This document shows, one piece after another, positions 52,181-58,431 of a stretch of 64,000 bases of DNA. How positions within the stretch are numbered: position 1 is the first letter of the stretch; every line of letters starts with the position of its first letter. The position numbers and the translations under genes are program-made. The notes under the pieces were generated by a model. It had not been told where the DNA came from. It searched no databases and saw nothing but the letters and a program-made list of their open reading frames with translations. The DNA comes from Candidatus Saccharimonadia bacterium (GTDB lineage: Bacteria > Patescibacteriota > Saccharimonadia > UBA4664), in the NCBI GenBank assembly GCA_035544015.1, contig DATKIP010000012.1, forward strand, positions 99,483 to 163,482, written 5' to 3'.

Positions 52181-52257
52181 TGGTGGATCCTAGAGGACTC
52201 GAACCTCTGACCCCTTCAACGTCAATGAAGTGCTCTAGCCAACTGAGCTAAGGATCC
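52181..52257 (-). tRNA. tRNA-Val (GAC), CCA encoded
   Basis: The minus strand GGATCCTTAGCTCAGTTGGCTAGAGCACTTCATTGACGTTGAAGGGGTCAGAGGTTCGAGTCCTCTAGGATCCACCA gives a canonical cloverleaf. Confidence 0.85.
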
Positions 52258-52391
52258 AAATTGTTACAAGGCCAAACTATACCGCAACCCCGGGCAATCT
52301 TCAAGCCCACCGGGTTGAAAATCCCCCACCAAAAGAGTACACTGCCTCGTGGCCAAAATTTGGCCCCACTACGCGCCCCAGGAGGCCCTTC

Positions 52392-52955
52392 GTGTTGTCC
52401 CCCTCCCCCGTCACCACCACGCCGTGTCGCTACCTCCGGACCCCAGGCCAAGGAGCTCCCGGGCTCAGCTGGTTCGCGACCGGGTCGAGAATCGTCCTGG
52501 CCGACTGGAACGGCTGGCTGCAAGCCGCCGCTGGGCAGCCGCGATTCGGCGTGCAATTGACCGGCATCATCGACCCGAGCGTCGATGAGACCCCGCGGAC
52601 ACTCACGCTCGACGTCAACCGGCAGAGCACCATCAACCCCGGCAGACCCGTAGTCATCAATCTCTACGACGGGGCCAGCTTCTGCACCGGTGGCGCCGGC
52701 GCCACCGTCCGCGAGGCGTTGGTGAGCCTGCTGTACAAGATCGCACCGGGCGAGGCCAACTTCACCCTGACCCGCTGCCAGTTCGCCGTGAGCGTGGCTC
52801 GCGGCTACGGCATCAAGACCGACGGCCTGATGGAACTCGAGCTCCAGGCGGCCGTGGGAGACACGGCCTTGCGGCGCCTGCGAGCTGCCGGCCACAACTA
52901 CCAGCAGCTGCTGGCCAAGCTCACGACCACGCTCGACGACGAGCCCACCGCGTAG
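52392..52955 (+). CDS. hypothetical protein (GTG start with AGGAGG SD 7 nt upstream)
   Basis: Non-repetitive composition and a good RBS. No family recognised. The overlapping minus-strand Gly-rich ORF was rejected. Confidence 0.35.
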   Translation: MLSPSPVTTTPCRYLRTPGQGAPGLSWFATGSRIVLADWNGWLQAAAGQPRFGVQLTGIIDPSVDETPRTLTLDVNRQSTINPGRPVVINLYDGASFCTGGAGATVREALVSLLYKIAPGEANFTLTRCQFAVSVARGYGIKTDGLMELELQAAVGDTALRRLRAAGHNYQQLLAKLTTTLDDEPTA

Positions 52956-52957
52956 CC

Positions 52958-52994
52958 GCCTCCCGGCGGGCGTTCCCAGTGAACGCCCGCCGGG
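52958..52994. other. 16-bp perfect stem hairpin (CTCCCGGCGGGCGTTC-CCAGT-GAACGCCCGCCGGGAG) with no U-tract
   Basis: Read directly from the sequence, immediately after the stop of the 52392..52955 ORF. Confidence 0.4.
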
Positions 52995-53069
52995 AGAGCC
53001 CCAGAGCCTTCCCTCCTCGCCCAAAATCCGCTATTATCACACAAGTTCACCCAAATGCCCCGCCCCTCG

Positions 53070-53147
53070 CGGGCAATTAGCTCAGTTGGTTAGAGCGCAC
53101 GGTTCACATCCGTGAGGTCACAGGTTCGAGTCCTGTATTGCCCACCA
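53070..53147 (+). tRNA. tRNA-Val (CAC), CCA encoded. It has an apparent extra G, giving an 8-nt anticodon loop
   Basis: GGGCAATTAGCTCAGTTGGTTAGAGCG-CACGG-GTTCACAT-CCGTG-AGGTC-ACAGGTTCGAGTCCTGT-ATTGCCCACCA is 78 nt where 77 is expected. Confidence 0.65.
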
Positions 53148-55287: not shown

Positions 55288-55363
55288 CACCCCGCTCCCG
55301 GTGGGGGTCGACCGGGGAACCCCTCGGCCGACCCCCACCCGCCCCGCCTTCAGGGCGGAGCCC

Positions 55364-55388
55364 AAAACCCCGCAACCCGGGGTTTTTG
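55364..55388 (+). terminator. Rho-independent terminator
   Basis: CCCCG-CAACC-CGGGG followed by TTTTT. Confidence 0.5.
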
Positions 55389-55434
55389 CCTTAAAATAGT
55401 AAGCGCGGCGCCCTCAACCCCAGAAGGGATCATC

Positions 55435-55911
55435 GTGACTACGACAGTGCAGCGACGTAGCGGCGGGATTAAGGTCTTTCGTTGGATTATTTTCGCCCTC
55501 GTCTTCCTACCCATCGTCATATCGATCGTGCCGAGCAAAGAAAAACCGCCACGACTGCGCATCGTCGCGTCAATGATTGGGGCCGATTACCGGGGCTACA
55601 CCCGGGAAGTGACGATCAATCGAGACATCGACAACATCAAGGTTGACTCCTTCAGCCCGATCAAACGTCACGATGACTACACCCCCTCTACACCGAAAAA
55701 ATTCCCCAACGAGATCTACGATCTAAAGTACGTCCTGAGGCCAACGGCCGAACTCACCGACGCCGGCCTGATCATTTGCACTGTCCAGGCCTTCATTGAC
55801 GGCAAGTGGACAAACACCCCGTTTCACGACAACCGACACGGGCCATCGACGGAGGGAGTAACCTGCCACGTGCAGGTGATAGACGGCCAAGTAGTTGCGG
55901 GCCACGATTAG
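55435..55911 (+). CDS. hypothetical membrane-anchored protein (lower GC)
   Basis: GTG start with GAAGGGA SD. N-terminal TM. Confidence 0.4.
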   Translation: MTTTVQRRSGGIKVFRWIIFALVFLPIVISIVPSKEKPPRLRIVASMIGADYRGYTREVTINRDIDNIKVDSFSPIKRHDDYTPSTPKKFPNEIYDLKYVLRPTAELTDAGLIICTVQAFIDGKWTNTPFHDNRHGPSTEGVTCHVQVIDGQVVAGHD

Positions 55912-56125
55912 ACCCATCGGCCTAGCCGCCCACCGAGAGCGCATCTCGGATCACAGCCTCTAGCGAGAAGGCCCCGGCCTCGCGCCGGAGGCTCTTCTCG
56001 ACCTTATGGCCCAACCACCACAATTCTACGACGCCCGCCCCAGGTCATCACGCTAATGCTTGCAGCATGCCCCACGCACACGCTACGCTATTTGTACTAT
56101 CTGCCAACATAAGAGGTTTGGGAGT

Positions 56126-57250
56126 ATGCTCAGTCAGCAAATCGCCGACAAAATCTGCGCCAAGGTCAGCGCGCTGGTCAATCAAGACTTGCGTCTCACC
56201 GACGCGGCCGGCCAGCCCCTCTCCCAAACCTCCGCCCTCAAACCCGAGCCAGTAAACCTCACCGAGGTTGCTTGGGCCATCCCATTCTCATATGGCGGCA
56301 ACGTCGTAGGCTACATCGCCCTCGAAACCGAAATGCCCAACCACACCGAAATCGCCCCGCTCATTCGCTCCATTGCCGAGCTCGTGATGCACCAATCGCT
56401 CGTGCTTGAGCAAATCCCGCGCCAAGACGAGCGCCTCGACAAATTCATCTACGACCTCCTCAACCAACCCCAGCCCGAATGGAGCCTCCTCGCCGCCGAG
56501 GCCCGCCTGTTCGACATCGAGCTCGATCGACCCCGCATCGCTATCGTCATTCAAATCGACGACCCCAGCCTCACCTCGCGATTCCAAGACCCCTCCGGCG
56601 ACCGCGAAGTCCGCCTCACCCGCTACAAATTTGGCATCACCCGCGCCCTCAATTCGTTCTACACCTCTAGCCGCGAAAACGTGGTGAGCTACCTCGGCGG
56701 CACCTCGTTTTGCATCCTCAAAGATATCCTGCCCACCGGCGACTCCGACCTCGACGCCGGTCTCGAAAACTTCAAAAAAAGCCTCGGCGTCATCTATGGC
56801 ATTCTCAAAAGCGAACTCAAACCCCCCACCACCGTCGGGGTCGGCAATTACCACCCCGGCCTCGAGGGCTTGCGTCAAAGTTTCCACGAGGCCACCTCCG
56901 CCATCGAGCTGGGCGCCCAAACCTGGGACGTCGACCGCATGTACCACATCGACGATTTCGGCGTGGTTGCCCCCCTCTTGTCCGGTGTCGACGAAAATAA
57001 TATCTACTTCTCGCGTGAACTCCTCGACCGCGTCGGCGAAAACAACGAAATCATCCAGACCCTCGAGGCCTTCTTTAGCTTCGACATGTCGCTCACCCGC
57101 ACCGCCGAGACCCTCAAAATCCACCGCAACACCCTCGTCTACCGCCTCGACCGCATCACCGAAACCCTCGGCCTCGATCCACGCGTATTCGACGACGCCA
57201 TTCAGATCAAGCTGGCGATTCTCTACAGCCGCTTTGTGGAGCGTGGCTAA
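56126..57250 (+). CDS. CdaR/PucR-family transcriptional regulator (sugar-diacid-regulator-like). Start refined to ATG 56126
   Basis: C-terminal PucR HTH LTRTAETLKIHRNTLVYRLDRITETLGLDPRVFDD. Confidence 0.75.
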   Translation: MLSQQIADKICAKVSALVNQDLRLTDAAGQPLSQTSALKPEPVNLTEVAWAIPFSYGGNVVGYIALETEMPNHTEIAPLIRSIAELVMHQSLVLEQIPRQDERLDKFIYDLLNQPQPEWSLLAAEARLFDIELDRPRIAIVIQIDDPSLTSRFQDPSGDREVRLTRYKFGITRALNSFYTSSRENVVSYLGGTSFCILKDILPTGDSDLDAGLENFKKSLGVIYGILKSELKPPTTVGVGNYHPGLEGLRQSFHEATSAIELGAQTWDVDRMYHIDDFGVVAPLLSGVDENNIYFSRELLDRVGENNEIIQTLEAFFSFDMSLTRTAETLKIHRNTLVYRLDRITETLGLDPRVFDDAIQIKLAILYSRFVERG

Positions 57251-58431
57251 TGCAGCTCAACACCGCTCTCGCCCGCCAAATCTCCGACAAGGCCAACCAA
57301 GTGCTCAAACGCGACCTGCTCATCGCCGACCTGTCGGGCCAGATCCTCGCCGGTGGTCCCGGCCGCGCCTTTGTCTCCGAGGCGCTTTCGGCCGCCCAAA
57401 CCGGCCGGCCCACCACCTCCGAATTCGAGGAGCGGCAAACCAAATGGTGGCCGTTCGTCTACGACGAGCGCACCATCGCCGTGTTTGGCCTGCCGCTCGA
57501 CACCGGCCCCATCACCCAAGAGGCCACCACCCTGCTCCAGGGACTCGCCGAGGTCATCGTATACCAGCACTTCCTGCTCGATAAAATCCAGTCGGCCGAA
57601 CGCGTGCGCGCCGATTTTGTCCGCACCCTCCTCACTGCCCCCACCATCGACGCCGCCGACATTCATCGCCAGGCCGACATCCTCCAGCTCAACGTGCGCG
57701 GCGCCCAAGCCGTCATCCTCATCCACCTCGACGGTTTCGAGACCTCAGTGCGGTCCAAGCACCCCCATCTGTCGTCAGAAGAACAACAACTTCAAATCGA
57801 CACCGCCGCCGAAGCCATCAACATCCTCGTCCGCGACGGCTTCAAAAACCTTCAAGAAAACCTCATGGCGTATCTCGGCGAAGATCGCTTCGTTCTTCTC
57901 AAAGGTCTCACCGGCGAAACCCTCACCACCCTCAACACCATCCGCCAAATGACCGAGAAAGCCCAAGCCACCTTCGCGATGCTCGGCGCCGCCAAACTCG
58001 ACCAACCCATCACCCTCGGCATCGGCCAATACTATCCCGATCTGGGCGGCCTCCGCAAAAGCTACCAGGATGCCAAGCTGGCGCTCGAAGTTGGCTCCAA
58101 GGTCTGGGGTACCGGCCGCGTCTACCACATCAAACAGGTCGGCATGTTCATCACCCTCGCCGCCACCAGCCAAGACCGCAAAGCCGAGCTCGCCCACCAA
58201 ATTCTGTCACCCCTGTTGCGCGACGAACAACTCTTCAAGACCGTCCAAGCCTTCCTGAGCTGCGGCCTCAACCTCACCGACGCCGCCGAAAAGCTCCACA
58301 TCCACCGCAACACCCTCATTTACCGCCTCGACAAAACCAAGAAGCTCATCAATCTCGATCCGCGCCATTTCGACGACGCCCTGCAGATCAAATTGGGCCT
58401 CATGTTCTACCAGGACCAATCCGTCGCCTAA
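57250..58431 (+). CDS. CdaR/PucR-family transcriptional regulator (tandem paralog; TAATG stop/start overlap)
   Basis: LTDAAEKLHIHRNTLIYRLDKTKKLINLDPRHFDD. The N-terminus is collinear with the upstream paralog. Confidence 0.75.
   Translation: MQLNTALARQISDKANQVLKRDLLIADLSGQILAGGPGRAFVSEALSAAQTGRPTTSEFEERQTKWWPFVYDERTIAVFGLPLDTGPITQEATTLLQGLAEVIVYQHFLLDKIQSAERVRADFVRTLLTAPTIDAADIHRQADILQLNVRGAQAVILIHLDGFETSVRSKHPHLSSEEQQLQIDTAAEAINILVRDGFKNLQENLMAYLGEDRFVLLKGLTGETLTTLNTIRQMTEKAQATFAMLGAAKLDQPITLGIGQYYPDLGGLRKSYQDAKLALEVGSKVWGTGRVYHIKQVGMFITLAATSQDRKAELAHQILSPLLRDEQLFKTVQAFLSCGLNLTDAAEKLHIHRNTLIYRLDKTKKLINLDPRHFDDALQIKLGLMFYQDQSVA

Follow-up and report, generated by a model that had tools for sequence, protein, structure and literature searches.

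The interval 52181-58431 of a 64,000-nucleotide (nt) stretch of a Candidatus Saccharimonadia bacterium genome (contig DATKIP010000012.1; the whole stretch is called the window below, and all positions refer to it) carries two tRNA-Val genes, the genes of a Gfo/Idh/MocA oxidoreductase (iolG) and of a xylose-isomerase-like TIM-barrel protein (iolE), and two tandem regulator genes of the PucR/CdaR family (cdaR1 and cdaR2). The results indicate, with a probability of about 70%, that this interval consists of native backbone of the Saccharimonadia (TM7, Candidate Phyla Radiation (CPR)) together with foreign DNA and does not form one functional unit. The regulator pair is present at the same place in all related loci sampled, while iolG and iolE, members of the inositol-catabolic IolG and IolE families to judge from their similarities, are found in none of them.

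Backbone order and insertion boundaries

The window was compared with about 20 related Saccharimonadia loci, five of which came from a metagenome scan, by mapping the window proteins with tblastn and the tRNAs with ARAGORN. The nearest sampled relative is distant, with a ThrRS identity of about 80%. The loci share one backbone order: MiaA and ThrRS on the minus strand, variable DNA, tRNA-Val(GAC), a variable gene for a protein of about 200 amino acids (aa), tRNA-Val(CAC), a variable slot, cdaR1-cdaR2, a small conserved open reading frame (ORF), the gene of a 23S-rRNA-intervening-sequence protein (IVP), and DinB. ThrRS, cdaR1, cdaR2, IVP, and DinB are recovered in the relatives by tblastn, and both tRNA-Val genes are likewise present. 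None of iolG, iolE, the 158-aa ORF downstream of them (orf158), or the 187-aa ORF between the tRNA genes (hyp187) is found by tblastn in the approximately 20 related loci. In the window, iolG, iolE, orf158, cdaR1, and cdaR2 follow the two tRNA genes, all on the plus strand. A previous reading of the DNA, made from the letters and translations without database searches (the sequence-only reading), had described the locus as bracketed by the two tRNA-Val genes. This is not the case, because everything except hyp187 lies to the right of both tRNA genes, which stand 814 nt apart at the left end. The features of the insertion and of the regulator pair are as follows.

53195-53365, plus strand: cassette leader, with TTGACA at 53201-53206 and the Shine-Dalgarno sequence GGGAGGA
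53239-53257: small hairpin with a T-run, in the leader
53273-53331: hairpin with 26-nt arms, in the leader (repeat search)
53366-54379, plus strand: iolG-like gene, predicted NAD-dependent inositol 2-dehydrogenase of the Gfo/Idh/MocA family (Pfam, TIGR04380, PDB)
54376-55287, plus strand: iolE-like gene, predicted inosose dehydratase with a xylose-isomerase-like TIM barrel (Pfam, TIGR04379, PDB); alternative start ATG 54406
55300-55391, plus strand: two hairpins 3' of iolE (55300-55339 and 55365-55391; repeat search)
55435-55911, plus strand: orf158 (158 aa), predicted to have a single membrane helix at the N-terminus and a beta-rich domain (GC 0.55; GC at third codon positions (GC3) 0.70)
56048-56125, plus strand: conserved promoter and leader of cdaR1, at the right edge of the insertion (alignment with seven relatives)
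56126-57250, plus strand: cdaR1, native PucR/CdaR-family regulator (Pfam HTH_30, GGDEF_2, Diacid_rec)
57250-58431, plus strand: cdaR2, paralogous PucR/CdaR-family regulator, native (Pfam)

DNA alignments define both edges of the insertion. Homology to the relatives stops at about 53190, just past the terminator of tRNA-Val(CAC), and restarts at about 56048, at the conserved cdaR1 promoter (seven relatives). The same slot, between tRNA-Val(CAC) and cdaR1, is empty in three relatives (L009, L012, and L022), where only a spacer of about 110-180 nt is present. In six others (L005-L008, L024, and L034) it is occupied by an IMPase-family gene (L005 7882-8703, L007 7999-8799, L024 1-546, and L034 6034-6825, for example), and others have about 0.9 kb of unrelated sequence there. 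No remnant of the IMPase-family gene is detected in the window by tblastn. The enzymes are a genome-specific insertion beside the native cdaR pair. A repeat search at the boundaries returned only short, chance-level repeats, and the only repeat that involves the tRNAs is the mutual inverted similarity of the two tRNA-Val genes. The insertion does not show the marks of a tRNA-associated integrative island, as there is no integrase among the ORFs of 52-56 kb and no tRNA-derived direct repeat.

The tandem PucR/CdaR-family regulators

The sequence-only reading had noted two paralogous CdaR-type regulators with a TAATG overlap, and this is what we see: the stop codon of cdaR1 and the start codon of cdaR2 overlap by 1 nt at 57248-57252, and the two proteins share 27% identity. 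Both have matches to HTH_30 (PF13556, about 6e-19) and to GGDEF_2 (about 1e-13 to 5e-14); Diacid_rec is matched weakly. Against the E. coli CdaR model NF008550, they score 97 and 62 bits. Because these scores are far from the cut-off of 612 bits, the regulators are members of the PucR/CdaR family and not CdaR orthologues. They have the same architecture as E. coli CdaR/SdaR and B. subtilis PucR and AdeR (a Diacid_rec-like N-terminus, GGDEF_2, and HTH_30) but differ from these in forming an obligate tandem pair of diverged paralogues. The cdaR2 protein has hundreds of homologues of 66-87% identity, and those with a named source belong to Saccharimonadia, Saccharimonadales, or Patescibacteria.

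The cdaR1-cdaR2 pair is present in every sampled relative, in the same order, down to loci with a ThrRS identity of 51-55% (loci L005-L025 and L032-L036). It always lies beside tRNA-Val, and no conserved target gene adjoins it. The identity of cdaR1 is 81-93% to the closer relatives and 60-69% to the distant ones, which makes it the best-conserved gene of the neighbourhood (87-93% where ThrRS has 77-80% and MiaA 62-73%). The conservation extends upstream of the gene, where the promoter and leader follow the pattern TGCTTGC ... TACGCTnnTTGTACTATnTGCCAAC ... AAGAGGT ... ATG. The upstream region and the N-terminus are both conserved in the relatives, placing the start at ATG 56126 and not at TTG 56060. 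The motif TACGCTnnTTGTACTATnTGCCAAC is unique in the window, and the promoter- or operator-like motifs of cdaR1 have no copy upstream of iolG. Because the pair is conserved in relatives without the cassette and has its own promoter, it is a native, independently promoted, lineage-wide feature and most likely not a dedicated regulator of the enzymes.

These results bear on the proposal, contained in the sequence-only reading, that dual regulators serve one small unit. In its full form, this would be a dedicated catabolic unit in which the CdaR pair senses a substrate or product and controls iolG-iolE, and we consider it improbable. In its favour, the genes are neighbours on one strand, the regulators have an N-terminal domain of the sugar-diacid-recognition type, and the IMPase-family gene in the slot of some relatives makes a loosely inositol-related slot conceivable. 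However, cdaR1-cdaR2 occurs in about 20 relatives without iolG or iolE, several of which have nothing between tRNA-Val and cdaR1; the pair has its own conserved promoter, whose motif is not repeated upstream of iolG; and terminator-like hairpins lie between iolE and the pair. In addition, the examined actinobacterial loci have a GntR or LacI regulator beside the homologues of the enzymes, not a CdaR-type one. The IMPase-family slot gene has its best match in the model for HisN-like histidinol-phosphatase (150 bits, which is under the cut-off), and the "inositol" label that it has in common with iolG-iolE may be a coincidence. We therefore infer that the cassette would be expressed independently of the native pair.

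A literature search on CdaR or PucR in Saccharibacteria returned no relevant report. Being more conserved than ThrRS, the cdaR pair is in our view a better target than the enzyme pair for understanding regulation in the CPR.

Downstream of cdaR2 (58432-59391), a low-GC spacer (0.49) is followed by a small ORF (58603-58860) and by the IVP gene (58936-59391), and this order is kept in most of the closer relatives. The small ORF is 44-80% identical in the relatives and has no match in Pfam, NCBIfam, or PHROG.

IolG and IolE family membership of the enzymes

The sequence-only reading had called the enzyme pair IolG/IolE-like, and the database comparisons agree: TIGR04380 and TIGR04379 are by far the best NCBIfam models, and the closest structures are inositol dehydrogenases (IDHs) and IolE. 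IolG matches TIGR04380 with 282 bits (4e-84) over residues 6-331 of 337, and the next family follows at 3e-23. It aligns end to end with the inositol 2-dehydrogenases 4hkt, 3ezy, and 3euw in the PDB (5e-53 to 8e-45). Compared to these three structures, the motifs GxGRIG, CEKP, RRFDP, and SGGxFRDMxIHDFD are kept, and GLLGVGRIG, CEKPIA, and FRDMLIHDFD of the window protein align with their NAD-binding motif, EKP lysine, and D-x3-H motif. The Lys, Asp, and His residues of these motifs we take to be catalytic, as in the IDH of B. subtilis. The best homologues of IolG are almost all from Streptomyces, with 46-50% identity.

IolE matches TIGR04379 with 184 bits (4e-54), and the next family follows at 3e-08. 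In the PDB, near full-length matches are found to 9zmu (1e-27) and 3cny (4e-24), and a profile search gives 153 and 135 bits for the IolE chains compared to 36 bits for the next chain; a 2-hydroxy-3-keto-glucal hydratase scores 33 bits versus 153 bits for IolE. The window protein keeps all of the approximately 90 invariant columns in an alignment of 10 actinobacterial sequences. Among its motifs are HPHVGT (HxH-GT), DTGH, HxHxKD, and EQD with the C-terminal Glu, which are also found in 9zmu and 3cny, and it carries a clade-specific LAAATG where other IolE proteins have Glu. The best homologues, with 48-54% identity, come from Micromonospora, Mycolicibacterium, Asanoa, Allonocardiopsis, Streptomyces, Pseudonocardia, and Nocardia.

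Both scores are below the equivalog cut-offs (282 bits versus 355 for TIGR04380, and 184 bits versus 290 for TIGR04379). Two control pairs were scored in the same way. The Micromonospora pair, which belongs to a complete iolG-E-C-J-B-D operon, reaches 308 bits (IolG) and 163 bits (IolE), and the Mycolicibacterium pair reaches 314 and 179 bits. Because these pairs also fall below the cut-offs, such low scores are characteristic of the actinobacterial clade as a whole and do not indicate a different function. By these comparisons, the oxidoreductase and the TIM-barrel protein appear to be ordinary members of the IolG and IolE families, in an actinobacterial subclade. The sequence-only reading had named two outcomes that would speak against it, enzymes of the ordinary inositol type and regulators reduced to pseudogenes; the enzymes do cluster with bona fide IolG and IolE, and the regulators are intact, conserved genes.

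The sequence-only reading had also seen a match to C-glycoside deglycosylation. A role of the pair in the cleavage of C-glycosides or 3-keto-glycosides (DgpA/DgpBC or CarA/CarBC), or as a glycoside 3-dehydrogenase with an eliminase, is very improbable in view of these comparisons. The generic architecture, a Gfo/Idh/MocA protein with a xylose-isomerase-like TIM barrel, is indeed the same, and IolG gives weak matches to DgpA chains (1e-11 to 5e-6, in the N-terminal domain only) and to the models of levoglucosan dehydrogenase and the glycoside dehydrogenases BT_2158/BT_2159. The latter are at 2e-10 or weaker, compared to 5e-53 for IDH structures and 4e-84 for TIGR04380. No C-deglycosidase TIM-barrel chain is found for IolE at E<=10 by sequence or E<=1 by profile in a PDB copy that includes DgpA entries, a gene for a small DgpC/CarC-like subunit is missing, and the closest homologues of the pair are found in complete iol operons. 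Compared to DgpA/DgpBC and CarA/CarBC, therefore, only the generic pairing of enzymes is alike, with a marginal similarity of the oxidoreductase, an undetectable one of the TIM barrel, and no second subunit.

The enzyme genes may be translated in a coupled manner. A start at GTG 54376, preceded by the Shine-Dalgarno sequence GGAGGAG, gives a 4-nt GTGA overlap of iolE with iolG, but with ATG 54406 the N-terminus agrees better with those of the homologues, so the translational coupling stated by the sequence-only reading is plausible and uncertain.

Leader, terminator, and orf158

The leader of iolG folds into an unusually stable structure (-88.8 kcal/mol, z=-6.5). No Rfam family corresponds to it, the hits being only sub-threshold noise, and it is not present in the relatives. 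At the other end, the second hairpin (55365-55391, AAAACCCCG..CGGGGTTTTT) is followed by a T-run and resembles an intrinsic terminator at the end of the cassette. No small extra ORF is present between iolE and this terminator. What lies in the insert (about 53190 to about 56048) can be read as a self-contained cassette of iolG and iolE, which brings a leader, Shine-Dalgarno sequences, and a terminator of its own, and, apart from it, orf158.

The latter corresponds to the lower-GC membrane ORF of the sequence-only reading, as it has a GC content of 0.55 and one predicted N-terminal helix. It has no match in Pfam, NCBIfam, or PHROG and no homologue at the related loci. Its composition is native-like, and terminator-like hairpins follow it. 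A single-sequence AlphaFold2 model, with a helix at residues 11-31, has a pLDDT of 53 and is too poor for a fold search.

Origin of the cassette

The named top matches of IolG and IolE are all from Actinomycetota. Below the 100% self-match, the next match is at about 50%, and there is no close Saccharimonadia protein. In a neighbour-joining tree of IolE rooted on two solved IolE structures, the window protein branches basally in the actinobacterial clade, within it when compared to a Nocardia sequence, and has a branch of ordinary length. It shares on average 50% identity with the clade members, which share 61% with one another, and 26-28% with the two solved structures that serve as outgroups. 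The composition of the cassette is distinct as well. Its GC content of 0.67-0.68 is the maximum of the window (z about 2.3). The top three GC3 values of the window are those of hyp187, iolG, and iolE (0.85-0.88 versus 0.66-0.80 for the native genes measured), and the third-position strand skew of these ORFs is weaker, at -0.27 to -0.39, than in most of the native neighbours, at -0.38 to -0.64. Since the pair is missing in the relatives, has the highest GC3, and has its own leader and terminator, iolG-iolE, being of actinobacterial type by sequence, were most likely acquired horizontally as a pair.

The high GC content of the cassette relative to its flanks and the actinobacterial best matches could also be produced by an assembly or binning artefact, in which actinobacterial DNA was misjoined into a Saccharimonadia contig. 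This is highly implausible: conserved Saccharimonadia sequence is found within a few hundred bases on either side of the insert, the cassette and backbone genes occur together on contigs of 251 kb and 111 kb (JGI) from different sources, and an identity of about 50% to any actinobacterial protein does not fit a contaminant co-assembled from a sampled genome. The proteins of cdaR2, iolG, hyp187, orf158, and cdaR1 are 100% identical to the records HVQ43587.1-HVQ43591.1 (MAG TPA: Candidatus Saccharimonadia bacterium).

Several points weigh against our reading of a native backbone with an acquired actinobacterial inositol cassette, or limit its reach. The anomalies in GC and skew are moderate (z 1.4-2.4), and other patches of the window deviate too. 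Even the nearest actinobacterial proteins share only 46-54% identity with those of the cassette, no donor emerged, and the transfer need be neither recent nor directly from a host; as the nearest sampled relative is itself distant (ThrRS about 80%), the acquisition may be old or young. The boundaries of the insert are without an integrase, an att-like direct repeat, or a tRNA fragment, as far as the ORFs of 52-56 kb and the repeat search cover. With scores under the equivalog cut-offs, the enzymes may be specific for myo-, scyllo-, or D-chiro-inositol or for another cyclitol. Outside the 64-kb window, the genome could still encode the remaining iol pathway, a transporter, or a dedicated regulator. 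Finally, co-option of the neighbouring CdaR pair by the cassette is conceivable from sequence alone.

A possible function of the cassette

By analogy with characterised enzymes, IolG would oxidise myo-inositol or a stereoisomer with NAD+ to scyllo-inosose, and IolE would dehydrate scyllo-inosose to 3D-(3,5/4)-trihydroxycyclohexane-1,2-dione. Together they would carry out the opening two steps of the canonical iol pathway. No IolC, IolJ, IolB, or IolD is detected in the 64-kb window by tblastn with Micromonospora queries (E<=1e-3), and the insert contains no transporter, in agreement with the sequence-only reading, so that the locus lacks a complete iol operon. IolA, another enzyme of the later steps, is likewise absent from the window. 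The cassette may open a pathway whose later genes lie elsewhere, may be a truncated module of two steps, or may be a remnant.

The last of these would make the cassette a non-functional leftover of a transferred iol operon that is unexpressed or decaying. Of the six or more genes of the pathway, just the first two are present, there is no transporter, the cassette is a singleton among the sampled relatives, and the heavily structured leader could block expression. On the other hand, the two ORFs have their full length, and no clade-invariant residue has been lost. The presence of Shine-Dalgarno sequences and a terminator is, together with the intact ORFs, a mild argument in the same direction, and a lineage with a reduced genome is expected to shed useless DNA fast. 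A leftover therefore seems quite unlikely to us.

We also put forward a more specific scenario, which is speculative and on balance doubtful: a soil Saccharibacteria epibiont may have taken the first two iol genes from the phylum that it parasitises and may run a deliberately truncated module on the myo-inositol of its host. myo-Inositol is abundant in Actinobacteria as mycothiol, phosphatidylinositol, and phosphatidylinositol mannosides. If this were true, the truncated module would yield NADH or a reactive diketone without the later pathway. It would also be the first inositol-catabolic capacity described in the CPR and a concrete case of metabolic gene flow from a host phylum to an epibiont. 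Apart from this scenario, the value of the finding lies in the setting and not in the enzymes, as the probable donor phylum is the known host phylum of Saccharibacteria. An intact, compositionally distinct cassette of actinobacterial type in one soil Saccharimonadia genome is a pointer to the phylum of the host and to one of its metabolites that the epibiont may exploit.

Comparison with known systems

The closest known systems are the iol loci of Micromonospora (L003) and Mycolicibacterium (L001), with identities of 51-54% for IolE and 35-45% for IolG (Streptomyces IolG reaches up to 50%). They have the same iolG-iolE order with a 4-nt overlap, the LAAATG motif, and scores below the TIGR04380 and TIGR04379 cut-offs. 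The window differs in having only iolG-iolE, with no iolC, iolJ, iolB, or iolD in the window and no GntR or LacI regulator or transporter at the locus, and in its host, a reduced Saccharimonadia genome. In Micromonospora, the iolG-E-C-J-B-D operon adjoins a GntR regulator and a phytase. Compared to canonical IolG and IolE of the B. subtilis type, the window proteins have the same folds, end-to-end alignments, and the same predicted chemistry, and share the motifs GxGRIG, EKP, and D-x3-H (IolG) and HxH, DTGH, HxHxKD, and the C-terminal Glu (IolE). However, the solved IolE proteins are only 26-28% identical to that of the window, and the B. subtilis-type IolG structures 3mz0 and 3nt2 match only at 1.5e-14; the window proteins belong to a subclade of rhizobial, Thermotoga, and actinobacterial IDHs, apart from the B. 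subtilis type.

Saccharibacteria have small genomes and are host-dependent, and all cultivated members are epibionts that grow on Actinobacteria (PMC10633639; PMC8764695). An arginine deiminase system was laterally acquired in mammal-associated TM7 (PMC8764695), and horizontal transfer in the CPR in general has been surveyed (PMC8406219, PMC10031880). The arginine deiminase module is likewise a small module gained by a reduced epibiont genome from outside the lineage, whereas the present case concerns a two-gene, actinobacterial-type inositol module in a single genome of a soil lineage, known from its DNA. A published comparison of experimentally profiled epibiont-host pairs reports a lack of evidence for lateral transfer (PMC8406219). 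As to inositol, phosphatidylinositol mannoside synthesis has been predicted in a rhizosphere Saccharibacteria genome (PMC6031116), and iolJ and iolT mutants of Gordonia resist the parasite Mycosynbacter (PMC11880426). A literature search (inositol; horizontal transfer and Actinobacteria) returned no report of iolG or iolE in Saccharibacteria, which is absence of evidence only.

The tRNA-Val pair and the gene between

The features at the left end of the interval are as follows.

52181-52257, minus strand: tRNA-Val(GAC), native backbone gene (ARAGORN; Rfam 67 bits)
52392-52955, plus strand: hyp187, a 187-aa orphan ORF (GC3 0.88)
52960-52996, plus strand: perfect hairpin with 16-bp arms 3' of hyp187, terminator-like, without a T-run (repeat search)
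53071-53147, plus strand: tRNA-Val(CAC), native backbone gene (ARAGORN; Rfam 73 bits)
53161-53189: terminator hairpin 3' of tRNA-Val(CAC)

Both tRNA genes are present as described in the sequence-only reading, tRNA-Val(GAC) on the minus strand and tRNA-Val(CAC) on the plus strand (ARAGORN, Rfam). They are divergent, and hyp187 is the sole ORF that they enclose. The position and orientation of tRNA-Val(GAC) are kept in most relatives, and the sequence of tRNA-Val(CAC) is invariant among them save for one base. The hypothetical gene of the sequence-only reading is hyp187 (52392-52955), and it has no match in Pfam, NCBIfam, or PHROG. A HMMER search of 1.84 billion representatives returned only hyp187 itself, plus low-complexity noise, and a single-sequence AlphaFold2 model (pLDDT 32) is too poor for a fold search. 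Its GC pattern by codon position is typical of coding DNA.

The gene between the two tRNA-Val genes of the relatives encodes a fast-evolving protein of about 200 aa, which is Mu-Gam-like (PF07352 in 6 of 10) or of the MerR/HTH_17 type (for example, L007 7126-7761, L009 2628-3332, L012 7989-8582, and L022 7975-8592). In the window, this slot between the conserved tRNA promoters (52258-53070) is filled by hyp187, a GC-rich ORFan, and the inter-tRNA slot behaves as a gene-replacement hotspot. We asked whether hyp187 is a diverged Mu-Gam-like slot gene, and this was ruled out by an hhalign probability of 0.1%. At the position matching the perfect hairpin (52960-52996), the relatives have other hairpins. 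A 15-nt inverted match between 52280 and 53217 was dismissed as probably due to chance.

Two further observations concern the DNA to the left. In the closest relative, the region from ThrRS to tRNA-Val contains five or six MerR/HTH_17-like genes (L005 2564-7616 and L006 1565-6617). They encode excisionase-like DNA-binding proteins, and the array is not in the window. The 170-aa ORF at 51577-52089 and hyp206 of the window have no match in Pfam, NCBIfam, or PHROG.

Other features of the window

The strand bias of the window is very strong. Over positions 1-64000, the GC skew averages -0.235 (1-kb bins); at third codon positions, read on the plus strand, it ranges from -0.4 to -0.64 in genes of either orientation. 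Patches of low skew are found at about 19-22 kb, 39.5-41.5 kb, and 51-56 kb. A DDE_3 (IS630-like) transposase ORF (39865-40896, minus strand) lies in a patch of near-zero GC skew, and this patch probably represents a further mobile or foreign segment.

Among the envelope and sugar genes of the window are those of a PMT-type protein O-mannosyltransferase, a DUF3152 protein, a GH13 alpha-amylase-family enzyme adjoining a trehalase, and an LCP (LytR-CpsA-Psr) protein, at 2398-3795 (plus strand), 8063-9730, 10601-12238, 12292-13644, and 13774-14835 (all minus strand). This set is reminiscent of Actinobacteria, for example in trehalose utilisation. The minus strand also carries two RNA genes, for a tmRNA at 21070-21447 (tag ANFFARVKAAFQAPSFAPAYA) and for an RNase P RNA of bacterial class A at 36023-36372 (262 bits).

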